Shown here piece by piece: positions 1 through 57,954 of a DNA stretch of 64,000 bases. The DNA is taken from IMG/VR virus record IMGVR_UViG_3300027734_000045, positions 57,062-121,061 of that record; one strand, written 5' to 3'. The position numbers were made by a program, and so were the translations under genes. This DNA is from a virus. Position 1 is the stretch's first letter; every line of letters starts with the position of its first letter. The notes beneath the pieces were generated by a model. It did no database searches. It was not told the DNA's origin and saw only the letters and a program-made list of their open reading frames with translations.

Positions 1-1
1 T

Positions 2-3000
2 CGTGAACTGTATTTGAAAGATCTCTTCGCTAAGAAGAAGGCCGAAATAGACGAAGCTAGTAAAGCTACAGGACCTTCACCTGATGCTGCCGCTGAAGGC
101 AAGGTGAAGGCCAAGAACAAGGCCGAGGCAAAAGGCAAGATGGCCGAGCCTGCCACGGACGCGCAAAAAAACTACGTAAAGGCAATGCTGAAGAACCCAG
201 CAGTTCCAGACGATGTTCGCTCTAGAATTCAGGCTGACCTCGATGAGCAAGGCGACGCGATAAACAAGAACGACATCGGTCTTCACATCGCTGAGCTAAA
301 GAACTACCCGAGCAAGAGTCTGCCGACAGACAAGATGTATAACTCGATACAGCGTGAGCTCTACGCCCGCGGAGCCTCTCCTGAAGAAGTCGATAAGATT
401 CTTGCTGACCTGCCTAACATGGACAAGAAGCAGGCCTCAGACCTAATCGGTTCGCTGAAGGAGAAACCAGACCTTGCCGGCGAAGAGGCAACTAAAAACG
501 GATTTGAAGAAACCACCAATGAGTCTGATAAGTACGATGGTCAGCGCCGCTGGACGAAGGTTGAAGCAGGTAAGCGAACTACAGTTCTGCTAAACGGTGA
601 TGGCTGGAGAGTTAATCACCAAAGCAACGTAGACCCAGCAACTGGAACCTGGAACGACTCGCAAATGCAGTCGATAGACCACGACTCAGAAAAGAGTTCC
701 AGCGCCGACGACGTGTTTAAGAACGCGGCTGACACCCACGAAACTCTCGGAGCCAAGGAAGAGCTTCCAATCGACGAGAGTGCTGTTGCCGCTGACGTAG
801 CCGCAGAAGTTAAGGAGCTTAGCGACAAGCAAAAAGAGCCTGCCACCGATAAGCAGCGCGCGTTTGTTGATAGTCTTCTTGCCAACCCAAAGGTTCCAGC
901 CGACGTAAAGAGTGACATCGAGTCTAAACTTGCCGCAAAGCCAGACATGAACAAGGCAGAGATTGGCGAGATTATTGGTGCCCTAAAGAAGCTCCCTGGC
1001 TCAGACGCACCTACCAGTAAGATGCTCAACTCAGTAAAGCGCGAGCTCATCGCACGTGGCGTTCCAGTCAACGAGGCGAATGAGACTAGAGCTAACCTAG
1101 ACGGCATGAGCAAGAGCGAGGTCTCAGACCTAATCAGCAAGCTAAAGAGTAAGGACGATGCCGCAGGAGCTCAAGCAGCGGCTAACGGCTTTGTTGAGGC
1201 CACCACTCCAGAGGACCAGGCAGGCGGAGTTCGCAGGTTCAACCTACTTGGAAGTGACGATGAGCTTCTAGCTGCACTTACGCTAGACGGCGAAGGCTTC
1301 ACCGTGAACCGCAAGGATGAGAACGGCGAGGACGACGAGTTGTTCCTTGGTCGCAACCTAGGTAGCTTTGAGAGAATCGCAAACGCGGCTAAGGCTGCGC
1401 AGGACCTAAAGAACACAGACGTCACTAAGACTCCTGGATTCGACAGTGAGTCAGACAGAGAAAAGAAGATTGCTACGGCTACGTACAACAGACCTGGAGA
1501 CAGTGGCACCTGGATGGAGGGCAAGACTCCAGATGGACAGCGCGGTTGGTCGTACTACGATGCCGATGGAAATGTTACTGAGGTAACTGAAAATCCCGAT
1601 GGCTCATTTACTAGACGCAGCAGCGACGCCCCTGAGCCTGTCACCTTTGATAGCGTAGACGAGGCGTTCTCGCTTGACAGTAAGCCAAGCGACACTGGCA
1701 GTAAGATGTCAGACTTCCAGGACGACTTTGACGACATAATCGAGGCGGTTCAAGGACTAGACTTGTCAGGAGACGATGAGTCAAGCGACGACACTCCTGC
1801 GTCAGACCTAAAGAACTACGTGTCTAATCAAGTTACGCAAGCGGAAGAGCTCATCAAGAAAGGTGACCTTCTCTCCGCGCAGGCCTCGCTGGCCCTTGCC
1901 GCGGCTGACGCAAACGATTCAGACGTCCCTGGAGCAGATGAGCTAGGAGACGCGCTGAACAACGCAGCTAAGTCGATAGCTGACATTAGAGAAGCGCAAA
2001 AGGCACTTGGCCAAGGTAGTGGCGGCGGAGATGAGCCTCCAAGCACTAACGCTCCTTCGTCTGCAGGCGACGACGACTTTGAAAACAACGTACGTGACGT
2101 CTCTGGCGACATCATGAGCATAGGCGAGGAACTAGACAAGAACCTCAAGAGCTCTGCGATAAACGCCATAGAAGAGCGCGAGGTTGCAGACGGTAGAACT
2201 ATTCTAAAGAACGCAGAAGACTCAATGGGTCAGGCGCAGGAGGCACTTGCCGCTGGAGACACTGAGACTGCAAGAAAGCTTATCGACCAGGCAGCTAGTC
2301 AACTAGCCGACGCGTCAGACGTCTTCGAAAACATCTTGGACCAGTCCGATGAAGGCAAGGCGGTAAGAAAGCTTGGAAAGAGTGCCGGTGACCTCGCTCT
2401 TAAGATAAGAGAAACTCTTCTTGATGGACAACCGCGAGGCGGAGGATCTGCCGGTGACAGAATCTTTGGCAAGGCTGGAATCTCCGATGACAGAATCATG
2501 CAGGCCATGGAGGACGTTGACGACTGGGTGGCATCCGAGAAAGGCAACGAGGTTTCTGGATGGGATAACAAGGTAGGCAACCTAGACCAGATGATTTCTA
2601 GTTTCAACGACGAGCCAGAGGCGCGCATGCAGAAGACCGCAGAGGCTCTGTACGAGCTAGGTCGTGAACTTGAAGACAATGGCTACAAGGATTCTGCGAA
2701 CACCTTGTTCGACATGTCCAAGGCACTTTCAGACGAGTTCTACGGTGACTCTGACGAAGACGAAGACGAGACCTCCACTTCAGGCACTGCAGAGTACGCG
2801 CCGGCGACAGACTGGACTCCTGCTGAGAACGGGTTTAACTTTACTGGCGGAGATGAGCCGGGAGAGGTCTCAGCAGCCTTAGCTAAAAAGAAGAAAAAGG
2901 TAGAAGACCTTATCGCAGATGGCGACTACGGAGGCGCGCTAGACGAGCTCTTCGACGGAGCGGCGAGCATTCCAATGAGCCGCGCCATGGAAGACGACCT

Positions 3001-6000
3001 CTCTGGATCGTACGACGGCATTCAAGATGGAGACGTCTTCTACCAAAACGCCGATACCATAGTCTATAAAACCAAGGATGGTCGCTGGAGAGTCTACTCT
3101 AAAGACGAGACGGACGGGTTTATCGACACCGGAGAGCCTGCCACTGACCAACTAGCCGACGAGCTTCTTAAGGAGATGATGGCGCCAAAGAGTGATTGGA
3201 CACAGGCAAGATTCTATGACCCTCGCCTAAATGACTTGTTCCACGCCAACAACGCGCCTGGCCCGAGCGGAAACCCAGCTAACCACACGAGTACTCCTAA
3301 CTACAAGATTAGCTTCGACGGTCTTCGCATGCCAGACGACTGGGCAGGTGACCTTGGTCTTCCTGAAAAGGGCGAGGAAGAAGAACCTTACTCTGACGGT
3401 GAACTAATCGACACCTGGCTAAAAAATAACGGTCTAGATGAGCTTGGCGTAAAGTGGGACCCAAGCTCAACAGAGACTACGTTTGGCGGAGCAAACGTCA
3501 ACTTTGAGATTCCTGAAGGTGCCAAGGACAAGTTTGGCGAGGCCTACTATGGAGAAGGTGCCACCTGGAAGGACCTCGAAGACGACGAGATTCCAGAGGC
3601 CATCGAAGGCGGAGAACCCTCTTCATCAATCTATTCAGACACCGAGAAAGCTGCGATGAATCGCAATATCGGCGACAGCGTAGTAGTAGTTGGTAAGAAG
3701 GGCAAGGAGAAGCCTGGAAAGATTATCGGCGTCGTACCTAGTTCTATCGGACAGTACATAGTAGAGCACGATGATGGAAGCACCTCTCTTCCTTGGTACT
3801 TTGACCTCAAGCCAGAAGGCGCAGAAACTCCTTCCGCTGACAAAAAGCCTACAGAGGCCAGATTCAACGGCAAGATTGGCGACAGCGTAGTAGTAGTTGG
3901 TAAGAAGGGCAAGGAGAAGCCTGGAAAGATTATCGGCTACGTACCTGGCTCAATCGGGCAGTACATCGTAGAACACGATGACGGAAGCTCCTCTCTTCCT
4001 TGGTACTTCGACATGAAGGCAGACGGCTTAGAAACTCCTTCCGCAGATGGAGAAGGTACTACAACCTCTCCAGCAGAAACTGAGAAACCTAAAAAGGGTA
4101 ACCAGATTGGCGAACGTATCGTCGTGATTGGTAAGAAGGGCAAGGAGAAGCCTGGAAAGATTATCGGCTACGTACCTGGCTCAATCGGGCAGTACATCGT
4201 AGAACACGACGATGGAACAACATCTCTTCCTTGGTCCTACGAAACTAAACCTGAAGGTGGAGAAACTAACCTAGGCTCAAGCGGCAGAAGCTCCGAGCAA
4301 GTGGCTAGAGACGCAGAAAACGCTAAGAAGACTGCGAACGAGCTTGCCGCGGAGTGGAACAGCAAACCTTTCCCTATCGCAGACCCAGACAGTCTTGCCA
4401 GTGAAGAGTCTCTCACTAAGATGAGAAACATACTGCTAGACGGCGCAACCAACTCTGATTACTTTGGTCCAGCGTTGAAGGCAATAGACGACCCAAATCT
4501 GTCAGGCACCGAGAAACTACAAAGAATCGCTGACGCGCTAACTGAACGTGGAGTTGGCTCTGATGGAAAAGGCGTCGACCTCCCTAATGCAAACCCTGGA
4601 CTTCCTCTAAACGGAGACTACTCTGGAAGAGAAAAGGCCTTGTGGGCTAAGTCAAACATAACAAGGGCGCTAAATCTAAATGGAATTTTCTCTACCAAGG
4701 AAAAAGAAGCAGGAAAAGATAAGCTAAGTCCTAGGCTACAAAAAATCGTTGACGCAGAGCTAAAGAAGCGCAGTGAAGGTGACGAGGGCAACGAAGGTAC
4801 AGGTGGTGTCGACCCAAAAGTACCAAGCCCTAGTAAGCCAGGGGGAGGTGGCGCAGAGGCTAGTACCAGCGAAAACTCCTCGCCGGAGCTCACGTCAAAG
4901 GTAGAAGGAACAAACGCGCAGCTCACAAAGCGCTTTGCCTCTCGCGACGAACGAGACGCCTGGCTAAAAAGCATTCCTAAAGGAGCAGAGGCCGGAATTG
5001 CAATATCTATATCCAGCCCGACTGACTTTGATTTTTACAACAAAAAGCGTGAACACTACGAAGTAAAAATCGACTTCGACACGCGCACCGAGGGGCTAGG
5101 CGTGCCTAAGGGGTTAGGCGCAGGTAGAAAGAAGGCTATCGAGTGGGCCGAAAAGGAAGGATTCGATCTCTCTGAGGGAGAGCACAGCAGCGAATCCCTG
5201 GTTCCAAAGGTTAACGTTGACGACAAGATTACAATGTCCAACATTAGATTTGATGACAAGATCGACCAAGCCGAAAAGATTGAGGCTAAACTAAAGCCTG
5301 GAGAAGAAAAGGACTCAGCGAGACTTAGAATTAAGTTGGCTAGAGACAAGATTTCTAAGGCAAGAAAGGCTCGCCTAGACGGAGACCTCGAGGAAAGCGA
5401 AAAGCTAACTGAGGAGGCCTCGGCCGAGCTAACCGCGATGGCTGAGGACATAGAAAAATACATGGTTAGCCCAAAAAGCCAAGACGCTAAGTATGGATTA
5501 AAGAACAAAGAGATACGAGAAGACGCAGCAAAGCTAGCCAAAGCAGTCGAAGCAGTTACGGCAAAAAGTAGAATAGCCTTTGCTGAAGAAAAAGAGGCTA
5601 AGTCGACTGAGTCTTCTGCATCTAGCTCAAGTACCATAACAGGCGACAAGTACAAGAAACTTATCGACAACGCGTACGAAAAGTACGACCCGGGAGTAGC
5701 TCAGCACAGCTGGGACACAAAGGGAATTGGCGAGTCAATCATGTCTCACCTTACCGGGATAGCTGACGACATCAAGTCAGGCAAGGAACTAGACGCCAAG
5801 GACGCCGCAAAGAAGATGCGTCAGCTTGCCTCGATGTACAACGAACTTGCTGACGCAGCAACTGGCAGTGAGGGAGAAGATGGAGCTGAGTGGAGCACAG
5901 ACGACTCCTCGATACAGGACCTTATCCAAGGTGCCCAAGAACTTGAGAAGCAGGCTGACCTGCTTGACCCTAAGGCGGTCGATAGCCCAAAAGCTGAAGC

Positions 6001-9000
6001 GCCTAGCGAACCTGACAGCGGTGAAACACAGGAGCCTATTTCAGTAGACAGTGTACTTACAGATGGAAGTTTAGCCAGCAAAATTACAAAGAACGCAGAC
6101 ATGGACGCAGCTGAGCTCGAGCAGCTGAGCACCAGAATAGCTAAAGAGTTAGAGAACAATCCTCAACTAGCCGCGGTGCTAAAGCTTAGTGGAGATAGTC
6201 CTATTCTTAGCGCCCTTGAAGAACTAAACTCCTCTAATGGAGAGTCTTCACAAGGTTTAGAAGGCGACCTCAACGTTCTAAGAGACACCCTAGACTCTAC
6301 AATAGAAGACAGCGAACTAATAGACTCGCTAACTAGGCTGCTAAAGAGCGTAGAAAAGAAAAACAACACCAAGAACCTAACTGGTTTTAAAAAGATTAGC
6401 GAGGCCAAGGGCTCTAACCCAGGTGGAATCTACGAGGACCCTAAGACAGGCGAGCGCTTCTACGTAAAGTTCCCTAAGTCAACACTTCATGGCGAAAACG
6501 AGGCACTTGCCTCAGCCATCTACGAAGAGCTAGGTGTACGCTCAGTCAAGGTCGAGCAGGGAGAACTTGATGGCAAGCCTGTCACCTACACCAGGATGAT
6601 AGACGGCGCTAAGAGTGACCTAAAGGATAAGCTATCAGACAAGTTCTACATGAAGCAGCTGCAGGAAGGCTTTGCGGTTGACGCTCTTCTTGCCAACTGG
6701 GACGTGGCCGGCCTAGAGTACGACAACGTGGTATCTGACGCAGAGGGACTTCCTGTTCGCGTTGACCCAGGAGGCGCGCTTCTGTTCCGCGCTCAGGGAA
6801 CTCCAAAGACAGACGACCAGTTCAATGAAAACGTACCCGAGCTGGACACCTTTACCGACAAGAACAGCTCGCGTCCTGCCGCCAAGATATTTAGCTCGAT
6901 GACTGCAAGTGAAAAGTTGGACTCCGCGGTAAAGCTTAGTGACCTAGACGATGACGTTATCGATAACTTGGTGAATGAACACATCTCAGATGAAGCCGCG
7001 GCAGATAAGCTAAAGAAGCTCCTCAAGGCCCGTAGGGACAACATCCTAAGCAAACTAGTATCATCTAAGGTATTCGAAGACGAGGCCTCTAAGCAAGGCG
7101 AGAGCAGCGAACCGGACGAGGAATTCCCGCCGTACGCCTATGGCGAAAAGAAGTCGCACTCTGAAGGTGACCGAGTTGACGTGCTGTGGGACCCTAAAAA
7201 TGGCGTAGAAATGACAGGCGAGGTCGTGTCTGGTCCAACTGAAGACCAGATGTATAAGATTAGGCTCGATGACTCAAAGGTTAATGGCGACCAGGCTGGC
7301 AATGTAATAACTGCTAACATAGTGTCTCTTCGTCCAGAGCAGGCAAAGCCAAACTTTGATGAAGACGAGAAACCTGCTGCAGCTCCTGAGGTGAAGACCT
7401 CTACAGGCGAGCTAAAGCCTGGAGACAAGGTTGTCTACAAGGACGGCTCAACTGGAACTATCGTCAAGGCGGACAAGAACCCTAAGTACGTTCACGTTGC
7501 GATGGACAGCAAGGGTGGAAAGCTTCAAATCAAGGCTCTAAGCAAGTTGACCAAGGTCGAGAGTGCGCCAGACGAAAAGGCAGCGCCTGCTCTATCTCCA
7601 TCTGGTAAGAAAATCGTTCCTAAACCTACTGCCAAGACTGTGCCAACGAAAACTGAGCCAGAGCCAGCAGCGGATGCAGACGCCACCTCCACTGGATTCA
7701 CTAACTTCAAGGACGCGAACGGCGTCACTTGGTCATCGTCCATAACGCAGAAGTCCAATGGCGACACTGTAATTAAGTGGGATGGCACTAACGGAGAAAC
7801 GTTCCCGGTCTACCTAGAGTTAGATAGCTTTGCTGGTACTTGGAAGGTAATGAAAACTGACTGGGCAGGACATCCGTTTTTAGTAAAGGACACCTGGGAC
7901 TCAGACAGCGCCGGGGCTCTTAACTTCGTGGCCAATGAAATTAAAGGCGGCCAGGGCGCGACAGACGACCTTGGAGATGAGCCGTCTATAGTTCCACTGA
8001 AGCCAGTTGGCAACGACATGCTTGCGTTCAACGACGGCAATGGAACAACCTATCCCGAGCTGCCTTCAGTAGTGCTGCTAAAGGACCCTGACTCTGCAGA
8101 CTCTAACCCAAAGTATTGGATTCAAATTGAGCCTGCGGCAGACCAAAACTGGTCGCCATTTGAGGACCACATGAGCTCTCCCGCCACTCGTTCTCTTGCC
8201 GAGGCGATTAGCATAGTCAACTCTCATCTAAAGAATAAGGGAGTTACTAAGGAAAACGTCGATAGTCAAGTTGGAGACAAGGAAGTTGTAAAGTGGGACG
8301 TGTACGGTCCTGGTCTAGTGACAAGCAACGTGGACACCAAGGCCTTAGCTGAAACCGGATTGATGTCTCCAGTCGACCCGACTAAGCCGATGTTTAGGGT
8401 TAAAGAGACTCCTGAAGGGTCGCTGGACTTGGTAATAGTTCCGCCTGACACTAGCGGACTGGACTTAACTGCTATTACAGTTCCTGACTCTGAATCGCTT
8501 GACGTTGCCGTCTCGGAGGCTCTGGCTGCCGACTACAAGGAGACAAGCAACTATACGCCAAATGAAAAAGAGATTAACTGGATTCAGGCGCTTAGTGGAA
8601 ACCACCTCAAGGACACGTCTAAGTGGGACGTAGATATGCTAAAGAATGCGTCATCAACTGGCACCGATGTAACTAAAAGTGGCAACGCTGGAGACGGCTA
8701 CATCGTAGACTCTAAGCAGAGGCCAATAGGTAAGGGAGAACTTGTAGTTCTGTCTGACGGTAGAACTGGAATATTAGCCCACGTAGGTCTTCCAGATGGA
8801 GAGATAAAGTACGACGCTCCTCAACCTACCGCGACAATTGTTTTTGCCGATGGAAGCACTGAAGCTGTAGACTCAGACAAGATTAGAGGTATTGGAAGAT
8901 CTCTCTCGATGGGTTACAACGCAGGCAGTGAGCTAACTAGAATTAAGAGACGCTATGAGCTGCAGAACATGGAGAAGACAGGAGTGGACCTTACTCCTGA

Positions 9001-10804
9001 GCAAAAGGCCGCGGCGGCTTCTAAACCGTTCTTTACTGGTCGAATCGTGAAAGACGCGAAGGGGGAGGAAGGCTTTATCGTCGAGGATAAGGGAGACGGC
9101 TACTTCAAGGTCCAATTTGGCGATGGCCACATCAAGTCAAGAGCCGGAAGTAAGCTCACCGCGACCGATAAACAGGTTAGGGACTACAACGGTCTAATGT
9201 ACACAGCTACCCACGTTAGAAAAGGATACGTCAAAGGCCTAATGAACTACGGGCAGACTGGCGGAGAGGGACTCGCAGTCCCGGTTCAACTTTCTGACCC
9301 GGGACAGAAGACCACTGCCGCTGGAGTTTCATACGGCAACGTGAAGGTTACCAAGAACGCGCTTGGAGCTCAACAGGTTGTTGTCGACAACCCGTTGCCT
9401 CCAACTGAGTCCGGCTTTACCAGCATCCCATCTCTCTCAACGGCCGTAGAGACAACGCTAAACCCTGACGACCCGCAGGCCGCTCTTAGAGGAGCCTCCG
9501 CAGCCTGGGACTCAGACTCAATTGAGGACCTAGACGTTAGATTCATGAGAGCAATCAACGAAAAGGGTGAGGACTCACTGTCCGCGAAGTTTAAGCTAAC
9601 TGCCTGGGCTGGAGACGCGTTTATAAATGACCTAATGAAACGCGCGGCAGAAGGCGACCAGAGCGTGACTATCACTGACGCGCTGCGCGTTCCAAAGCAG
9701 GTGATTAACTCCAACGGTGTTCTTTCATACGACCCATCTGAGCTTTCTGCAGCAGGCTTGACAGGAGCCGCGTATTCAAGCAGCGAAGGAACTACCGCCA
9801 CGGTCACCTTAGACGATGGCACTAAGATTGTCTTTATGAGAGCTGATAACGCTACAAAGGCTAAGGGAGAAGGAGTCAACCTCTCGAGCGGCACCAACGT
9901 GATTGCCTTCCACAACAAGGTGCTGGTTCTCTTCCCAGAAGGAGCTAAGAACGACCCAGACGCAATCGCTAAGGTGCTGGCACAGGCTGGAGTCCGCGAT
10001 TCCAGGCCGGCGACAGAAGCGGACGCTAAGACACTTATAGAAAACCGCCTAATCAGCATCTTTGCTGGAAAGACCAACCCGAAAACAAATCCAGGTGGCG
10101 CGACTAGAGCTACTCTCCTTGACGAGGTAAAGGCTAAGTTCGACATCGGACCGGAGGACGTGACCATGTCCACCGGCGGCGGCGGTAGAGTCGAGATGAG
10201 GCTGTCAGAAGAAAAGGCCAAGGCGCTTGCTAAAAAGACAAACATCGCTCACTTCAAGCACACGTGGCACAGTACCGGTCAAATAGCCCAAAACATGGGA
10301 GAAAGCGACGAGGACTTTAGAGATAGAGTTGCAGACGCGGTAGCCGCTAAGCTGGCGACTCCTCAAGGCGGACTTCTTTCTACGACCACTCGCTGGACAG
10401 AGGGTATCCCGACGTCAGGAATGAGCAGCGCCTCTGACGTAAAAACAGGCGGTGGAGACTACGTGTTCTTGACCCCACAAGGCGCCTGGGCTGGCAAATC
10501 TGGAAGCTATTACAACGGAGCGCCTACCATCTACTTCTCTCCAGAGAAGCTCTTCCGTAGACTTGACTTCTGGGCGAACGCGACTGACAAGTATGGCGCT
10601 AGGTCCGAGAGCAAGACAGCCATGACCGACATGGTTCCTGGCTCCTACGAGGCCATGTTCAAGCAAAGAGTTAGCTTTGACGACCTAGACTCTCTACAAG
10701 TAAGAACAGATGCGCATAGGGATGCACTTATAAAGGCGCTTAAAAAGCGTGGAGTCTACGACTTTGGCGGAGTGCCAATTGAGCAAATAATACAGGTAAG
10801 CTAA
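2..10804 (+). CDS. Giant multidomain protein (>3,600 aa, 5'-truncated), probably virion-associated; helical repeats, SH3/Tudor-like repeats, PI3K/HipA-like kinase domain, C-terminal ART-like domain
   Basis: Frame is open from nt 2 (CGT GAA CTG TAT TTG), so TTG at 14 is probably not the start. Kinase-like GSNPGG..FYVK..NEALA..DALLANWDV..DN..RVDPGG at about 6385-7050; C-terminal H..GGLLS..DYVFL..YEAMF. Lies just upstream of the head genes. Confidence 0.75.
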   Translation, partial: RELYLKDLFAKKKAEIDEASKATGPSPDAAAEGKVKAKNKAEAKGKMAEPATDAQKNYVKAMLKNPAVPDDVRSRIQADLDEQGDAINKNDIGLHIAELKNYPSKSLPTDKMYNSIQRELYARGASPEEVDKILADLPNMDKKQASDLIGSLKEKPDLAGEEATKNGFEETTNESDKYDGQRRWTKVEAGKRTTVLLNGDGWRVNHQSNVDPATGTWNDSQMQSIDHDSEKSSSADDVFKNAADTHETLGAKEELPIDESAVAADVAAEVKELSDKQKEPATDKQRAFVDSLLANPKVPADVKSDIESKLAAKPDMNKAEIGEIIGALKKLPGSDAPTSKMLNSVKRELIARGVPVNEANETRANLDGMSKSEVSDLISKLKSKDDAAGAQAAANGFVEATTPEDQAGGVRRFNLLGSDDELLAALTLDGEGFTVNRKDENGEDDELFLGRNLGSFERIANAAKAAQDLKNTDVTKTPGFDSESDREKKIATATYNRPGDSGTWMEGKTPDGQRGWSYYDADGNVTEVTENPDGSFTRRSSDAPEPVTFDSVDEAFSLDSKPSDTGSKMSDFQDDFDDIIEAVQGLDLSGDDESSDDTPASDLKNYVSNQVTQAEELIKKGDLLSAQASLALAAADANDSDVPGADELGDALNNAAKSIADIREAQKALGQGSGGGDEPPSTNAPSSAGDDDFENNVRDVSGDIMSIGEELDKNLKSSAINAIEEREVADGRTILKNAEDSMGQAQEALAAGDTETARKLIDQAASQLADASDVFENILDQSDEGKAVRKLGKSAGDLALKIRETLLDGQPRGGGSAGDRIFGKAGISDDRIMQAMEDVDDWVASEKGNEVSGWDNKVGNLDQMISSFNDEPEARMQKTAEALYELGRELEDNGYKDSANTLFDMSKALSDEFYGDSDEDEDETSTSGTAEYAPATDWTPAENGFNFTGGDEPGEVSAALAKKKKKVEDLIADGDYGGALDELFDGAASIPMSRAMEDDLSGSYDGIQDGDVFYQNADTIVYKTKDGRWRVYSKDETDGFIDTGEPATDQLADELLKEMMAPKSDWTQARFYDPRLNDLFHANNAPGPSGNPANHTSTPNYKISFDGLRMPDDWAGDLGLPEKGEEEEPYSDGELIDTWLKNNGLDELGVKWDPSSTETTFGGANVNFEIPEGAKDKFGEAYYGEGATWKDLEDDEIPEAIEGGEPSSSIYSDTEKAAMNRNIGDSVVVVGKKGKEKPGKIIGVVPSSIGQYIVEHDDGSTSLPWYFDLKPEGAETPSADKKPTEARFNGKIGDSVVVVGKKGKEKPGKIIGYVPGSIGQYIVEHDDGSSSLPWYFDMKADGLETPSADGEGTTTSPAETEKPKKGNQIGERIVVIGKKGKEKPGKIIGYVPGSIGQYIVEHDDGTTSLPWSYETKPEGGETNLGSSGRSSEQVARDAENAKKTANELAAEWNSKPFPIADPDSLASEESLTKMRNILLDGATNSDYFGPALKAIDDPNLSGTEKLQRIADALTERGVGSDGKGVDLPNANPGLPLNGDYSGREKALWAKSNITRALNLNGIFSTKEKEAGKDKLSPRLQKIVDAELKKRSEGDEGNEGTGGVDPKVPSPSKPGGGGAEASTSENSSPELTSKVEGTNAQLTKRFASRDERDAWLKSIPKGAEAGIAISISSPTDFDFYNKKREHYEVKIDFDTRTEGLGVPKGLGAGRKKAIEWAEKEGFDLSEGEHSSESLVPKVNVDDKITMSNIRFDDKIDQAEKIEAKLKPGEEKDSARLRIKLARDKISKARKARLDGDLEESEKLTEEASAELTAMAEDIEKYMVSPKSQDAKYGLKNKEIREDAAKLAKAVEAVTAKSRIAFAEEKEAKSTESSASSSSTITGDKYKKLIDNAYEKYDPGVAQHSWDTKGIGESIMSHLTGIADDIKSGKELDAKDAAKKMRQLASMYNELADAATGSEGEDGAEWSTDDSSIQDLIQGAQELEKQADLLDPKAVDSPKAEAPSEPDSGETQEPISVDSVLTDGSLASKITKNADMDAAELEQLSTRIAKELENNPQLAAVLKLSGDSPILSALEELNSSNGESSQGLEGDLNVLRDTLDSTIEDSELIDSLTRLLKSVEKKNNTKNLTGFKKISEAKGSNPGGIYEDPKTGERFYVKFPKSTLHGENEALASAIYEELGVRSVKVEQGELDGKPVTYTRMIDGAKSDLKDKLSDKFYMKQLQEGFAVDALLANWDVAGLEYDNVVSDAEGLPVRVDPGGALLFRAQGTPKTDDQFNENVPELDTFTDKNSSRPAAKIFSSMTASEKLDSAVKLSDLDDDVIDNLVNEHISDEAAADKLKKLLKARRDNILSKLVSSKVFEDEASKQGESSEPDEEFPPYAYGEKKSHSEGDRVDVLWDPKNGVEMTGEVVSGPTEDQMYKIRLDDSKVNGDQAGNVITANIVSLRPEQAKPNFDEDEKPAAAPEVKTSTGELKPGDKVVYKDGSTGTIVKADKNPKYVHVAMDSKGGKLQIKALSKLTKVESAPDEKAAPALSPSGKKIVPKPTAKTVPTKTEPEPAADADATSTGFTNFKDANGVTWSSSITQKSNGDTVIKWDGTNGETFPVYLELDSFAGTWKVMKTDWAGHPFLVKDTWDSDSAGALNFVANEIKGGQGATDDLGDEPSIVPLKPVGNDMLAFNDGNGTTYPELPSVVLLKDPDSADSNPKYWIQIEPAADQNWSPFEDHMSSPATRSLAEAISIVNSHLKNKGVTKENVDSQVGDKEVVKWDVYGPGLVTSNVDTKALAETGLMSPVDPTKPMFRVKETPEGSLDLVIVPPDTSGLDLTAITVPDSESLDVAVSEALAADYKETSNYTPNEKEINWIQALSGNHLKDTSKWDVDMLKNASSTGTDVTKSGNAGDGYIVDSKQRPIGKGELVVLSDGRTGILAHVGLPDGEIKYDAPQPTATIVFADGSTEAVDSDKIRGIGRSLSMGYNAGSELTRIKRRYELQNMEKTGVDLTPEQKAAAASKPFFTGRIVKDAKGEEGFIVEDKGDGYFKVQFGDGHIKSRAGSKLTATDKQVRDYNGLMYTATHVRKGYVKGLMNYGQTGGEGLAVPVQLSDPGQKTTAAGVSYGNVKVTKNALGAQQVVVDNPLPPTESGFTSIPSLSTAVETTLNPDDPQAALRGASAAWDSDSIEDLDVRFMRAINEKGEDSLSAKFKLTAWAGDAFINDLMKRAAEGDQSVTITDALRVPKQVINSNGVLSYDPSELSAAGLTGAAYSSSEGTTATVTLDDGTKIVFMRADNATKAKGEGVNLSSGTNVIAFHNKVLVLFPEGAKNDPDAIAKVLAQAGVRDSRPATEADAKTLIENRLISIFAGKTNPKTNPGGATRATLLDEVKAKFDIGPEDVTMSTGGGGRVEMRLSEEKAKALAKKTNIAHFKHTWHSTGQIAQNMGESDEDFRDRVADAVAAKLATPQGGLLSTTTRWTEGIPTSGMSSASDVKTGGGDYVFLTPQGAWAGKSGSYYNGAPTIYFSPEKLFRRLDFWANATDKYGARSESKTAMTDMVPGSYEAMFKQRVSFDDLDSLQVRTDAHRDALIKALKKRGVYDFGGVPIEQIIQVS
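3665..4255 (+). repeat. Three near-identical copies of a ~50-aa SH3/KOW-like module within the giant ORF
   Basis: IG(D/E)xxVV(V/I)GKKGKEKPGKIIGxVPxSIGQYIVEHDDG repeated three times; ttggtaagaagggcaaggagaagcctggaaagattatcggc is identical in all three copies. Confidence 0.9.
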
Positions 10805-10811
10805 GGTAGAG

Positions 10812-11474
10812 ATGATGCAAGGTAAGCCAATTTTTAGAAAAATAGACCGCGGTGGCGACAAAATCTACATGCAAGGACCGGCTGTCCTGCAGATAGGCAA
10901 GCCACGCCTAGACGAGATAACCGGCTACGTTCCCATTGTGTCCGTGCAGCTAAACTACGATAGGGTGTCAAAGGCCTACTCAGTGATGGCCTCGGGAGTC
11001 TACAGAGTTAGAGAGTACGAGCTAAAGTCTATAAATGACTTTAAGTTTATGCCTACTCTCAATAAGATAACATTTGAGTTTCAAGGTACAATGTATACTG
11101 TACGACCGTTCAAAGACGAGGACGGCCACTGGGCTTCAAGCACAGAAGGTCCAGTTCCTTCAGACATACTAGAGGACATCCTGGTCAACAGCTTTAAGGC
11201 GGAAATTGGAGAAGAGAATCTGTTCATGAACGAATCATTAACGGCTCTTACAGACGAGACAACTGGCGAGGTTGTCTACCTGTTGTACACCGGAGCAAAG
11301 AAGACCTTCACGCGTAAAGGCGGAGAATGGCTTGAGCTTCACGACCCTAAGGGCGAGCTACTTGATGGACTAAACCTCTTTGACGTGGTTCCGGCCTTTG
11401 TAAAGTTCTATGACGAGAAGAACGGAAAGGTCTCTGAAAAGGACATCAATAAATTTGAAATGGAAATGAGCTAG
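10812..11474 (+). CDS. Hypothetical protein (220 aa)
   Basis: ORF 7 nt after the giant gene, with aaggtaga upstream; no recognised motif. Confidence 0.75.
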   Translation: MMQGKPIFRKIDRGGDKIYMQGPAVLQIGKPRLDEITGYVPIVSVQLNYDRVSKAYSVMASGVYRVREYELKSINDFKFMPTLNKITFEFQGTMYTVRPFKDEDGHWASSTEGPVPSDILEDILVNSFKAEIGEENLFMNESLTALTDETTGEVVYLLYTGAKKTFTRKGGEWLELHDPKGELLDGLNLFDVVPAFVKFYDEKNGKVSEKDINKFEMEMS

Positions 11475-39783: not shown

Positions 39784-40622
39784 TCAACATCAAAGACGGA
39801 GTCAATGGCTACGTTGACCTAGTGCAACATGTTTTAAAACACGGTAAGGAAGTGGCTCCACGTGGGCAGAAGACCAGAGAAATTGAAGACGCCATCATTA
39901 GAATCGATGATGTCTACAACACTTTGCCTTTAGGAATCAACCGTGGAACCGTTCCTGGAATCGGTGCTGTAGAGGCTTGTCAGCTACTTGGAGGAAGCAG
40001 CATCCCGGAGCTAGTGATAGCCGTTGGTCCACAGTTCAAAAACTTTGCCGAGGATAACGGAATCTTTCACGGTGCGTATGGACTTAGAACCAATGGGCAA
40101 TACGACGTTATTATCGAAAGACTCAAGGCAGACCCTGATACTCGCCAGGCCGTAGTCACAATCTGGAATCCAGAGTACGACCTGCAGCCAAGCAAGAGAG
40201 ACTATCCTTGCACGGTTTTACATCAATTTAGAATTCGTGACAATAAACTAAACATGAGCGTCTACATGCGTTCCAATGACGTTTGGCTTGGTGCCGCCTA
40301 CGACTTCTTCCAGTTTACCCGTGTTCAGTTGGCTATTGCTTCAGTGCTAGGAATCGAACCTGGAACTTATAACCACCACGTCGGCTCGCTTCACATCTAT
40401 GAGCAGCACTACGAGGCTGCAGACAGTCTCAAGTATAGTGATAAGATTATTGATGTGCCGTTTATAACTGGAGCAACATGGGCAGAGGTTAGCGACTCAG
40501 CAAATGACGCTTTGTTTGCCGCCATGGATGTTAAGCCACTAGATAGCATAAGCCAAGACGCACGCTGGTACGCCGAGGCAATGAAAAACGCAATCAAGCG
40601 CAACGCTGAGAAGAGTGAGTAA
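39768..40622 (+). CDS. Thymidylate-synthase-family enzyme, dCMP hydroxymethylase-like
   Basis: DYPCT..QF.IRD.KL..MRSNDVWLG...D..VGSLHIY; Asp at the position of ThyA Asn177, as in T4 gp42. Confidence 0.82.
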   Translation: MDTAIINIKDGVNGYVDLVQHVLKHGKEVAPRGQKTREIEDAIIRIDDVYNTLPLGINRGTVPGIGAVEACQLLGGSSIPELVIAVGPQFKNFAEDNGIFHGAYGLRTNGQYDVIIERLKADPDTRQAVVTIWNPEYDLQPSKRDYPCTVLHQFRIRDNKLNMSVYMRSNDVWLGAAYDFFQFTRVQLAIASVLGIEPGTYNHHVGSLHIYEQHYEAADSLKYSDKIIDVPFITGATWAEVSDSANDALFAAMDVKPLDSISQDARWYAEAMKNAIKRNAEKSE

Positions 40623-55321: not shown

Positions 55322-57954
55322 TGACTTCATGGGAATCAGCAAAAGGTAGACTTCTTCCAGGAGCCGAATGGTACGCGCAACAAGGTTGGAGAATTCTTCC
55401 ATGCTATGGAATAGTTGATGGCCGTTGTACCTGTAATGGATTACACACCGAGCCTAAGGACGTCGGTAAGCATCCAAGTATTAGTGAGTGGCAAGTCTAC
55501 TCTAGCACTGACCCAGGCACAGTTCGCAAGTGGTGGGAGTCAGCGCCTGAAAGCAACATCGCAGTTTTTTGTAAGGCATCAGGTTTTCTAGTTATAGACG
55601 TTGACCCTCGTTCCGGTGGTGAGGCTTCGTTTGAAAAGTTTGAAGAGCTCGTAAACTTCAACTTGCCTAAGACCGTCGAGGCTCTAACCGGCGAGTATTC
55701 ATACAAGGGAAAGCTTGCCAGAGGGCGACACCTATACTATAGGGTAGACCCAAATGAACAGCTAATTGGAAGACTTGACAAAGAGCTTCCCGGAATTGAC
55801 ATCAAGCACAACGGATACGTGCTGGTCGCGCCGTCGCGACACTTCTCTGGAAACACCTACGACTGGAAACCTGGCCAAGCTCCATGGGAAATCGAGATTG
55901 CACAGGCTCCCGAGGAACTGCTTCAAGTCTTACGAAAAAAGAACCGTAGAAGCGGAAGTGCGCTTGGCCAAGGTGACTGGTCGTTCATGGACAACCTTGA
56001 ATACAGTGGCGAACGAGTAGACATCGAGAAGATGCTTGATGAAGGAATTGCCGAAGGTTCTCGCGCAGTTGACATCTATCGACTTGCCTGTGCACTTGCA
56101 AACAAGATGGGCGTTGACACTGAGTACAAGAGACTGGCTCTTGAAACTCTAATGATTCGCTTCAATCACGAGAAGGTTCGTCCGCCTATGGACCTCGAGG
56201 GACCTAACTCGTTGCTAATGCACGTGAGACGCGCCATGGACTTTGTAGCTGAGAATGGACATAGACGAGATGGAATGTTCCCCGGAGTACTCAGTGAGTG
56301 GGCTAGAAGGTCTCAGGCTGAGTCTCAGAGCAGTGCACAAGGTGGTGACACCGAACGAGTCGGAACGTCTGACCCAGATGACTCGCGTGATAGCAACGTA
56401 AATCAGCTTCCTGGAACTTTAGGTGGCTCAGTAAAGGCCTCGGTCACGGGCGGAATCTCTATAGCGCAGGCTTTTGCTGGCAGCAACGTTGATGTTCCTA
56501 AGGACCCAGACGCGCTTAGCGAGGCTGAAGGTGGTACACCTGGAATGCGTACTCTAAGTGATACTGGAAACGGCCGTAGACTCATTGACACCTTTGGCTC
56601 CGCCGTTCGGTACACTCCTGGACTAGGTTGGTTCCACTGGAATGGAGACTACTGGAAGCCAGACGTTGAAGAACTTGAAATGCGTGAGCTTGCAAAGCGC
56701 CTAGCGACCGTAATCGCCTCTGAGGTCGTCAACTACACTGACCTAAAAGAGCAGAACGACGTTGTTAAGTGGGCTCAACAGGCTAAGTCAAATGGTCGTC
56801 TTTCCGGCGCGCTAGAGTCCGCGACATCTGACCCTCGCGTGACTGTTGGAGTAGACACCTGGGACAGCGACTCTCACCTGCTTGGTGTTCAAAATGGTGT
56901 CATTGACCTTCGCACTGGAGAGCTACTAAAAGGTCAACCTAATCTTTACATTACTAAACGCGCTCCTGTGGCGTACACTCCTGGACTTACAAACGTTCGC
57001 TGGCAGGAATTCATAGACTTCGCTACAGGTGGTGACAAGGAGCTTCAGGACTGGCTACAGAGAGCTGCCGGATACTCGTTAACCGGTCTGCGTACTCAAG
57101 ACGTTATGTTCTTAGTTTATGGTCCGCCTGGCTCCGGTAAGAACACCCTGGTCGAGGCTATCGTAAAGTGCATGGGTACTCAACAGTATGCGTGGCCTTT
57201 AGACTCTAGCATTCTTGCTCAAGGAGATGGACAGGCTCATGGTTCGGACCTTTATCACTGGGCTGAGCTTCGTGGTCGTCGTATGGTTTGGGTTGATGAG
57301 CTTCCAGAGTCTGAGCGCATGAAGGAAAACTCCGTTAAGAAGCTAACTGGTTCATCTGAAATCTCTGCTCGTTCTCCTGGAGAGAAGCCGTTTACGTTCC
57401 AGTCACAGGCAAAACTTTGGGTGACAACTAACCACAGACCGATAATCAACGATGACGCGATGTGGCGTCGTCTGCGTCCAATTCCACTTATAAAGACTCC
57501 AGAGAAGCCAGACCCAGACCTGAAGGAATACTTCTTCGACCCAGAAGGCGCTCTGCCTGCCGTCCTGTCTTGGGCAGTTGAAGGTGCTATCAAGTACCTT
57601 GGTTCTTCTGCTCGTGACCCACTTGGTTGGTGCGCAGCTGTTGCTGACGCCGCTGAAATCTATCGCAAGAACGAAGACAGAATTGGCATGTTCCTAAACG
57701 AAGAAACTCTTGAGGTAGCAGGAGCTGCGGTGTCTATCAAGGACGTCTACGCGGTCTACCGGTTCTGGAGTGAAGGCCGTGGAGAAAAGGCACTATCGCA
57801 GATAGGTTTCCATAGGAAACTTGCTGACCGTGGAGTTGAAATCCTAGGTCAGGGCTCAAGGGCTGAGATTTTAGGAAGAGTAATGGCGCCTAGGGCGGTT
57901 GAGCGCAGTGAAGTATCCTGGACAGAAAACGTGCTAAAGGCAAAGACATACTAG
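55321..57954 (+). CDS. Bifunctional primase-polymerase fused to D5/SF3 helicase
   Basis: A..Y...GW.I.P..KHP..WW..N....VIDVD..G.HLYY..GYV..PS; D.GNG.R; YGPPGSGKN; WVDE; N..P. Confidence 0.92.
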   Translation: MTSWESAKGRLLPGAEWYAQQGWRILPCYGIVDGRCTCNGLHTEPKDVGKHPSISEWQVYSSTDPGTVRKWWESAPESNIAVFCKASGFLVIDVDPRSGGEASFEKFEELVNFNLPKTVEALTGEYSYKGKLARGRHLYYRVDPNEQLIGRLDKELPGIDIKHNGYVLVAPSRHFSGNTYDWKPGQAPWEIEIAQAPEELLQVLRKKNRRSGSALGQGDWSFMDNLEYSGERVDIEKMLDEGIAEGSRAVDIYRLACALANKMGVDTEYKRLALETLMIRFNHEKVRPPMDLEGPNSLLMHVRRAMDFVAENGHRRDGMFPGVLSEWARRSQAESQSSAQGGDTERVGTSDPDDSRDSNVNQLPGTLGGSVKASVTGGISIAQAFAGSNVDVPKDPDALSEAEGGTPGMRTLSDTGNGRRLIDTFGSAVRYTPGLGWFHWNGDYWKPDVEELEMRELAKRLATVIASEVVNYTDLKEQNDVVKWAQQAKSNGRLSGALESATSDPRVTVGVDTWDSDSHLLGVQNGVIDLRTGELLKGQPNLYITKRAPVAYTPGLTNVRWQEFIDFATGGDKELQDWLQRAAGYSLTGLRTQDVMFLVYGPPGSGKNTLVEAIVKCMGTQQYAWPLDSSILAQGDGQAHGSDLYHWAELRGRRMVWVDELPESERMKENSVKKLTGSSEISARSPGEKPFTFQSQAKLWVTTNHRPIINDDAMWRRLRPIPLIKTPEKPDPDLKEYFFDPEGALPAVLSWAVEGAIKYLGSSARDPLGWCAAVADAAEIYRKNEDRIGMFLNEETLEVAGAAVSIKDVYAVYRFWSEGRGEKALSQIGFHRKLADRGVEILGQGSRAEILGRVMAPRAVERSEVSWTENVLKAKTY

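Follow-up and report, generated by a model that had tools for sequence, protein, structure and literature searches.

Results

A giant gene between the portal and the head maturation genes

We analysed a 64,000-nucleotide stretch of viral DNA, referred to below as the window, which corresponds to positions 57,062 to 121,061 of the IMG/VR virus record IMGVR_UViG_3300027734_000045 (G000:C1:57062-121061; the record is 121,061 bp long and rated 90% complete). The window begins inside a giant gene, present as an open frame without a stop at positions 2-10804 of the plus strand (3,600 codons). The frame opens upstream of the window, at G000:C1:54675. A start at the GTG codon G000:C1:54690, in a 4-nt overlap with the stop of the gene before it, yields a protein of 4,391 aa; the database gene call (P0018) has a TTG start 34 codons later and gives 4,357 aa. 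We prefer the GTG start, because seven homologs have N-termini that align to the stretch separating the two. Residue numbers of the window translation are marked W where a range is given; the full-length number is W + 791. An earlier annotation made from the window's letters alone, hereafter the original prediction, had proposed a protein of more than 3,600 aa lying beside the head genes. With the upstream sequence recovered, that protein proves real and larger, and its position is confirmed: Pfam and PHROG scans give the order TerL, portal, a Dps-like protein of 803 aa, the giant gene, an orphan of 220 aa (p220), a protease/scaffold-like protein, an orphan of 151 aa and the major capsid protein (MCP), followed by the major tail protein, head-tail adaptor, tape measure and Dit (Table 1). 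Together these genes form a head-tail block of siphovirus type, and the source is an uncultured phage, probably with an actinobacterial host.

Table 1. Coordinates of the giant gene, its domains and neighbouring genes (window positions unless a prefix is given; W, residues of the window translation; ART, ADP-ribosyltransferase)
Feature	Position	Strand	Remarks
Giant gene, full	G000:C1:54690-67865	+	4,391 aa; first 2,372 nt upstream of the window
Giant gene, 3' 10.8 kb	1..10804	+	open frame with upstream extension; on record as P0018
Module of ~165 aa, two copies (W42-207, W272-438)	125..1315	+	internal BLAST, 37-48% identity
Three tandem repeats of ~56 aa (W1221-1422)	3662..4267	+	small beta-barrel-like sequence pattern; 57-77% mutual identity
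Protein-kinase-like domain (W2122-2345)	6365..7036	+	fold model, structure matches, conservation
Kinase catalytic-type codons	Lys 6467-6469, Glu 6500-6502, Asp 6701-6703, Asn 6725-6727, Asp 6764-6766	+	
Two candidate small beta modules (W2365-2440, W2455-2520)	7094..7561	+	sequence only
Two candidate small beta modules (W2900-2965, W3000-3065)	8699..9196	+	sequence only
Alpha/beta domain before the ART (model residues 62-264)	9392..10000	+	AF2 model; belongs to the conserved C-terminal module
ART-fold domain (W3404-3600)	10211..10801	+	fold matches, conservation
ART codons	His 10259-10261, Arg 10391-10393, Asp 10436-10438, Tyr 10460-10462, Asp 10586-10588, Glu 10649-10651	+	
p220, 220-aa orphan	10812..11474	+	7 nt past the giant gene; possible partner of the giant protein
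Protease/scaffold-like head protein, 1,342 aa	11483..15511	+	phrog_859, phrog_18402, phrog_3244 (head maturation protease); Peptidase_S78 weak, E 0.0034
MCP, 681 aa	16185..18230	+	phrog_777, E 5e-79, residues 421-672
Portal	L002:12535-14268		phrog_776, E 1e-104
Dps-like protein, 803 aa	L002:14283-16694 = G000:C1:52282-54693		ferritin/Dps-like PF00210, E 4.6e-17; DUF5824, E 8.4e-7
Thymidylate-synthase-family gene (L057)	39807-40424		PF00303, E 2.6e-28

A chain of small modules joined by acidic linkers

Acidic linkers string the small modules of the giant protein together; the chain has a net charge of -242, no cysteine and nine linker-like segments in which, per 40 aa, at least 30% of residues are Asp/Glu and no more than 25% are hydrophobic. 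phrog_636, a family of unknown function, matches both copies of the ~165-aa module (E 1.4e-10) and makes it the sole part of the protein known to the PHROGs; whole-protein scans of Pfam, PHROGs and NCBIfam returned nothing else above threshold. The acidic linkers of the original prediction are thus present, and so, of its putatively helical repeats, is a duplicated ~165-aa module.

Its further count of at least six SH3/Tudor-like modules holds in part. The three tandem ~56-aa repeats are real, and a hidden Markov model of the repeat detects exactly three copies in the giant protein, which at this sensitivity sets the remaining small modules apart from it. The family name is another matter: no Pfam family matches the triple repeats even at E ≤ 10, and among the four other candidates, beta-rich stretches that resemble SH3/Tudor-type barrels by eye, two have sub-threshold matches (W2455-2520 to YajC at 24.3 bits, with a cut-off of 28.2, and to CarD_TRCF_RID at E 0.094; W3000-3065 to the 53-BP1 Tudor family at E 0.055) and two have none at segment level (W2365-2440, without any Pfam match, and W2900-2965, for which Tudor_3 appears at E 0.15 in the whole-protein scan).

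A short motif, hydrophobic-[T/V]-A-[A/S], occurs seven times in the chain, against 2.8 ± 1.7 in 500 shuffled versions, 15 of which reach seven. Four of the seven lie at full-length residues 35-131 (LTAA, LTAS, LTAS, LVAS) and three elsewhere. We therefore rejected a chain-wide processing code at domain boundaries in favour of an N-terminal cluster, which may represent processing or recognition sites at the N-terminal domain.

A kinase-like domain with a complete catalytic set

The segment W2095-2345 has 16 relatives of similar length in a collection of 5.8 billion proteins. An alignment of the query with 13 relatives displays a Gly-rich GSNPGG loop, the Lys of a YVK motif, the Glu of NE..LA, and the motifs LANWD...DN and R.DPGG. 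The AlphaFold (AF2) model built from this alignment has a mean predicted local distance difference test (pLDDT) score of 87.5 and a predicted template modelling score of 0.83. Foldseek retrieved 121 PDB chains for it at E ≤ 1e-3, headed by H. pylori CtkA (E 6e-7, template modelling (TM) score 0.61) and followed by actin-fragmin kinase and ordinary protein kinases. VIA, an aligner independent of Foldseek, likewise gave CtkA (Z 15.8 over 199 residues, root-mean-square deviation (rmsd) 3.2), and further CotH (13.9), PI4KII-alpha (12.8), MavQ (12.0) and HipA (11.5). Even a PDB sequence-profile search weakly picks CtkA (E 0.026), with LANWD aligned to the ...LLGNFD of CtkA. No Pfam, PHROG or NCBIfam model covers the domain; in the ESM Atlas, HipA_2, PI3_PI4_kinase and LepB_N appear at 0.91, as leads only.

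In the model, Lys2156 lies on a strand and Glu2167 on the next helix, and Asp2234, Asn2242 and Asp2255 occupy the catalytic-loop and DFG-like positions; each of the five is kept in all 90 domain-bearing relatives (90/90). The kinase-like domain of the original prediction is accordingly retained. On the modelled fold and these residues, it is an atypical protein-kinase-like enzyme of the CtkA/CotH/PI4K/HipA branch that bears every sign of activity. Its fold neighbours phosphorylate proteins or lipids, and its own substrate may belong to either class.

A C-terminal domain with an ADP-ribosyltransferase fold

The AF2 model of the C-terminal 531 residues has a pLDDT of 79.4. Its first five Foldseek ranks are all DarT entries (probability 0.90-0.99, E 0.015-0.065, target TM score at most 0.52), and yeast Tpt1 and Mycobacterium tuberculosis DarT stand lower in the same list. 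VIA gave DarT1 at Z 7.6 (151 residues, rmsd 3.2), two further DarT rows (7.3 and 7.0), yeast Tpt1 (6.8, 108 residues), M. tuberculosis DarT (6.7) and SopF (5.4), with OspC3, CopC, TreX and CteC in lower rows; all of these cover model residues ~335-531. The higher-ranking ART-type rows are all NAD+-using enzymes, and it is from this, together with the agreement of two aligners, that the match draws its weight. As modelled, the C-terminal domain has an ART fold whose nearest solved folds are DarT and Tpt1.

Across 149 representatives of the family described below, His3420 is kept in 146/148, Arg3464 in 148/148, Asp3479 in 147/147, Tyr3487 in 130/147 (with nine Phe), Asp3529 in 147/147 and Glu3550 in 145/147. 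His3420 lies on the first predicted strand of the domain, Tyr3487 on a later one and Glu3550 at the start of another, with the invariant Arg3464 between the His and the Tyr. The spacing His-44-Arg-23-Tyr-63-Glu compares with H13-38-R51-20-Y71-89-E160 in DarT2, whose residues H13, R51, Y71 and E160 are described in the text of PMC9967889 and PMC11543638. By order, spacing and predicted strands, the His/Arg/Tyr/Glu set would match the DarT active site.

The Alt/VIP2-type R-S-E family (PF03496, ADPrib_exo_Tox) has no match in the giant protein; its ART is not of the Alt type cited in the original prediction and is nearest in fold to DarT and Tpt1. The catalytic set of Tpt1/KptA is Arg-His-Arg-Arg, and the residue before the invariant His in the aligned C-terminal family is Lys, Asn, Gln or Glu, not Arg. 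The C-terminal module has no PHROG or NCBIfam model, and a PDB sequence search with the last 1,600 aa gave chance-level rows only. Matches of the C-terminal model in BFVD are all weaker than E 1e-3; they include iridovirus 422L and betabaculovirus ORF32, which may belong to the 'ORF28 family' of baculo-, asco- and iridoviruses that the text of PMC9503650 relates to DarT-like ARTs. The ESM Atlas offers Shigella_OspC on 33% of one cluster (0.90), as a lead only. With the ART-like C-terminus recovered by two aligners and carrying invariant or near-invariant His/Arg/Tyr/Glu, an enzyme-fold match has been found for both of the catalytic domains originally predicted.

The ~280 residues preceding the ART (model residues 62-332) are conserved together with it, including in the short MuF forms described below. 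Besides the alpha/beta domain of Table 1 they hold a small three-helix unit, and VIA finds weak matches for the region (RNA triphosphatase tunnel, Z 5.0; START, TBP and a type III chaperone, ~4).

A large family with a constant C-terminus and a variable middle

A HMMER search with W3070-3600 against 1.84 billion cluster representatives returned 511 at E ≤ 1e-3 and 135 at E ≤ 1e-30. The giant gene therefore represents a large family, of at least 511 clusters at 50% identity, that is unnamed in any library. Architecture was counted in the 150 representatives listed, 113 of which are at least 1,000 aa long (the longest 7,004 aa). In 86 of these 113 long representatives the module ends within 40 residues of the C-terminus, and in 90 the kinase domain is also present: the two enzyme domains are kept together within the family. 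The C-terminal module is conserved and the middle is variable. Fifteen homologs scanned for extra enzymes in that middle carry RNase_T (7), ADPrib_exo_Tox (PF03496; 6), UvrD-type helicase (3), NUDIX (2), GNAT (1) and WYL (1) domains, none of which is found in the giant protein itself. Such variable predicted effector domains fit the role of a cargo carrier.

Scanning viral contigs with the C-terminal 531 aa as a single protein gave no relative; an IMG/VR scan with a tight alignment of the ART region (A5) found 49 related loci. In 33 of them the same open reading frame (ORF) includes the kinase, with ORFs from 1,502 to more than 4,000 codons, several cut by contig ends. By tblastn at E ≤ 1e-5, a homolog of the protease/scaffold gene lies downstream in 39 loci, the MCP downstream in 26 and the portal upstream in 15; most of the remaining loci end too soon to provide enough flanking DNA. 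A search of 185,579 species genomes gave two loci, both on contigs of metagenome-assembled genomes (MAGs); it used exact peptide patterns, for which absence elsewhere is weak evidence.

Among 50,697 GenBank phage records, Actinomycetia phage DSL-LC01 is the sole one in which the C-terminal module and the kinase are both matched (41% of a 1,600-aa query aligned at 35.8% identity). Its protein WJZ48510.1 (3,289 aa, 'hypothetical protein') stands in an identical gene order, and its genome, itself metagenome-assembled, is the nearest GenBank phage. An actinobacterial host and a link to Gordonia phage GodonK are given for it in the text of PMC10611076, where the giant homolog is not discussed in the parts available. 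GodonK gp67 (1,479 aa), encoded directly after the portal, has the kinase domain in common and no match to the C-terminal module at E ≤ 1e-3. Both WJZ48510.1 and gp67 are unannotated. A phage Jeremy protein carries PF03496 at its C-terminus.

Relatives fused to MuF and a different N-terminal domain

Thirteen of the 49 loci encode a short form of 638-784 codons without the kinase. Phage_Mu_F (PF04233) scores above the Pfam cut-off in four of six distant relatives (L039, L041, L046 and L056; E 1e-14 to 1e-21), namely three short forms and a 2,022-aa protein on a Halomonas MAG contig. L056 combines MuF, the kinase and the ART-like module. A local profile of the MuF-type N-terminus detects all 13 short forms and four of the 150 representatives, three of the four with the kinase. 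MuF-ART, MuF-kinase-ART and giant forms thus all exist, and with the giant's new N-terminus they make a natural series for studying how cargo is targeted to capsids. MuF proteins such as SPP1 gp7 are portal-bound head components, the accepted model of an injected toxin is a MuF fusion, and in T4 the ART Alt is packaged (PMC5576092 and PMC5512222, as far as their text was available). That the C-terminal module is fused to MuF in relatives supports its packaging in the capsid.

The giant protein itself, unlike the MuF-fused packaged enzymes cited in the original prediction, has no MuF domain by Pfam, and Phage_Mu_F is absent at E ≤ 1 from all six frames of the phage genome. Since the phage lacks a MuF gene, the giant gene occupies the MuF slot. 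Its N-terminus instead belongs to a conserved domain of ~230 aa found in 78 of the 150 representatives; in all but one of these the domain begins no later than residue 52 (77/78). Over its first ~110 positions it is similar to the DUF5824 region of the Dps-like neighbour (E 4e-6 against seven proteins), a hint that the two proteins share a targeting or assembly element. When the portal (alignment of 16) and the N-terminal 235 residues of the giant protein (nine rows) were modelled as a complex, the score was 0.00; with no controls run, this counts neither for nor against portal binding. Capsid delivery, as originally proposed, has been strengthened by the gene order and the MuF-fused relatives, although it is still something that we infer.

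Discussion

Likeness to known virion and effector proteins

Polyvalent virion proteins, MuF toxins and packaged ARTs such as T4 Alt are known already. New here are a DarT/Tpt1-like ART without a Pfam, PHROG or NCBIfam model that is constantly paired with a CtkA-like kinase, a non-MuF N-terminal domain at the MuF position, a distribution of conserved and variable parts that reverses that of polymorphic toxins, and the very large size. We found no paper that describes, within a phage head protein, either a CtkA-like kinase or an ART of the DarT-like type; such domains could be listed in the supplementary tables of Iyer 2017, Jamet 2017 and the 2022 NAD-ADPr survey.

Two effector-type catalytic folds in one ORF of 4,391 aa, flanked by TerL, portal, protease, MCP and tail genes, are reminiscent of the polyvalent proteins, among whose typical cargo the text of Iyer et al. 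2017 (PMC5512222) names ARTs and kinases. In that text these are likewise very long polypeptides with several enzyme domains, encoded among the virion genes of portal-terminase phages and predicted to be packaged and injected; homologs of the giant protein share their GNAT, NUDIX and helicase domains. Unlike them, the giant protein matches no Pfam polyvalent-protein-domain family. The polyvalent-protein kinase, as presented in the text of PMC5512222, has lost its C-terminal subdomain and occurs mainly in (pro)phages of Verrucomicrobia/Chlamydia and Bacteroidetes, whereas the kinase of the giant keeps a helical C-lobe; the same text, in the parts available, describes neither a DarT-like ART nor the N-terminal domain found here.

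With the MuF toxins and SPP1 gp7, as treated in the text of Jamet et al. 2017 (PMC5576092), the giant gene shares a place in the head block after the portal and a C-terminal effector. It differs in that the giant protein and 78 of the 150 representatives carry another, unrelated N-terminal domain, in being 5-10 times longer, in the reversed arrangement of conserved and variable parts, and in a phage that shows no temperate sign in the species-genome search. DarT (DarT1/DarT2) is the best fold match of the ART in both aligners, with the same His/Arg/Tyr/Glu order and a similar spacing, but DarT is a ~200-aa toxin of a toxin-antitoxin pair, whereas the ART of the giant has no sequence-profile relation to it and no DarG macrodomain or NADAR partner, follows ~280 conserved residues absent from DarT and is fused to a giant chain. 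The kinase resembles CtkA, HipA, CotH and PI4KII in its fold, Gly-rich loop, Lys, Glu, catalytic Asp in xNxD and DxGG metal-site motif, and departs from them in being at most 19% identical, in lying inside a phage head-block protein and in having no Pfam model. The proposed logic, a head-carried ART injected with the DNA, is that of T4 Alt; Alt is nonetheless an R-S-E ART (PF03496), which the ART of the giant is not, and an extra PF03496 domain is carried by six of the 15 giant homologs.

A proposed capsid-delivered effector

We favour, with a probability of roughly 0.6, the interpretation that the giant protein is a polyvalent virion protein, packed in the capsid and injected, whose kinase and ART act on host molecules. 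A few copies would be built into the prohead through the conserved N-terminal domain, placed where relatives carry MuF; the acidic, Cys-free chain of small domains would then unfold and leave alongside the DNA by way of the portal and tail; once inside the new host, the kinase, using ATP, and the ART, using NAD+, would modify host molecules before phage gene expression, presumably for host takeover or counter-defence. Injected phage proteins act before phage gene expression, and, T4 Alt, N4 vRNAP and some MuF toxins aside, few of them have to our knowledge been characterised.

The original prediction had the protein phosphorylate and ADP-ribosylate targets. Both folds are there, but that wording does not say which kind of target is meant. 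The nearest ART folds, DarT and Tpt1, act on nucleic acids, namely on DNA bases or RNA phosphates. With these two nearest in fold, and with an invariant Arg that stands between the His and the Tyr and recalls R51 of DarT, nucleic acid is the more likely target of the ART than protein, a suggestion by analogy that we treat as a lead only. Carried further, the C-terminal enzyme would be a capsid-delivered nucleic-acid ADP-ribosyltransferase, using DarT-type chemistry for phage offence, with the kinase as a second and independent hit. Host DNA (or RNA) would be ADP-ribosylated, stopping host replication and expression, and phage DNA would be spared, perhaps by base modification, to which the thymidylate-synthase-family gene in the window might contribute; the co-inherited CtkA-like kinase would attack host proteins, and the new N-terminal domain, held partly in common with the Dps-like neighbour, would be a MuF-independent capsid-targeting signal. 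We consider this extended scenario a tentative one, with the odds clearly against it. If true, the modification of nucleic acid by the ART would place DarT-like chemistry on the phage side of the conflict.

Several observations weigh against a packaged and injected enzyme. The case for packaging is comparative, the Dps-like gene separates the giant gene from the portal, and the N-terminal domain is not a degenerate MuF, a possibility rejected when hhalign gave a probability of 0.1 against the MuF regions of the relatives. The net charge of the protein is also unlike that of the internal proteins of T4, which we take to be basic. On the enzymatic side, the ART match is middling (Foldseek E 0.015-0.1, VIA Z 7.6, where Z < 8 can reflect a common arrangement), the domain was modelled as part of the 531-residue model, and its putative active site was mapped from order, spacing and predicted strands. 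No sequence profile ties the domain to DarT: the 22 aligned members of the C-terminal module match no Pfam model even at E ≤ 5, profiles A2 and A5 relate no PDB chain to the module (chance-level rows), and the DarT model PF14487 has no match at E ≤ 1 in six frames of the genome. Macrodomain PF01661 and NADAR PF08719 are absent from the genome at E ≤ 0.1. Having neither a PF14487 match nor a macrodomain or NADAR gene, the C-terminal domain is DarT-like in fold but outside the DarT family.

Other explanations

The protein could instead be a late product that works unpackaged in the producing cell, for instance by modifying host factors, DNA or the proteins of assembly; its position among the head genes would then reflect timing alone. 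Many late genes are non-structural, the giant has no MuF domain of its own, and its N-terminus shares a DUF5824-like segment with the Dps-like neighbour. On this account, however, the recurrence of the C-terminal module in MuF fusions would be hard to understand, as would the position between portal and protease/scaffold, kept in most loci with sufficient flanking DNA, and the N-terminal domain begins within the first 52 residues almost without exception, as a targeting module should. We judge such a role rather unlikely. A mainly structural function, in which the giant would be an internal head or core protein for DNA organisation or ejection and its enzyme-like domains would be relics, agrees with the length of the chain, with its repeated modules and linkers, with its location among the assembly genes and with the ~3,500 aa that bear no enzyme signature. 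Relics would nevertheless hardly retain their catalytic-type residues with so few exceptions, or none, among relatives of 24-51% identity. In homologs, moreover, additional enzymes take their place in the chain (of 15, seven have RNase_T, six ADPrib_exo_Tox and three UvrD), which is the pattern of effector cargo, not of a scaffold, and we hold the structural explanation to be improbable.

The remaining alternative is a polymorphic toxin tip of the MuF type, in which the C-terminal ART would be a growth-arresting toxin or NADase serving competition or superinfection control, and p220 its immunity protein. The module does lie at the extreme C-terminus of most long representatives, relatives are fused to MuF, p220 follows directly downstream in 22 of 49 loci, and the text of PMC5576092 provides the MuF toxin model. 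Yet polymorphic toxins vary at the tip and are conserved before it, the reverse of what is seen here; p220 escapes tblastn in the more distant loci, including 13/13 MuF short forms, and has no recognisable fold family; and the two loci among 185,579 species genomes give no prophage sign, within the limited reach of a pattern search. This explanation too seems a poor bet compared with a polyvalent virion protein acting on host molecules.

Neighbouring genes and further observations

The orphan p220 has no Pfam, PHROG, NCBIfam or PDB relative (PDB rows at chance level). Homologs found by tblastn directly 3' of the giant gene are 27-41% identical, and none was detected by tblastn in the more distant loci. 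It could be a partner or immunity protein of the giant protein.

The lineage is abundant in metagenomes and nearly absent from GenBank phages, among which megablast found no match to the first 20 kb. Of 8,000 candidates scored against the portal, 2,051 are related to it at E ≤ 1e-10; identity is 69-79% in the best 120, many of which sit on contigs of 90-150 kb. The 1,342-aa head protein, with protease-type as well as scaffold- or portal-labelled PHROG matches, is unusually long for a prohead protease. In the MCP, phrog_777 spans its C-terminal part alone, and the N-terminal ~420 residues may be a fused scaffold-type domain. On a Myxococcota MAG contig (L055:700-6492), a protein of 1,931 aa joins an N-terminal Annexin repeat (E 6.9e-16) to the C-terminal ART-like module of the giant family.

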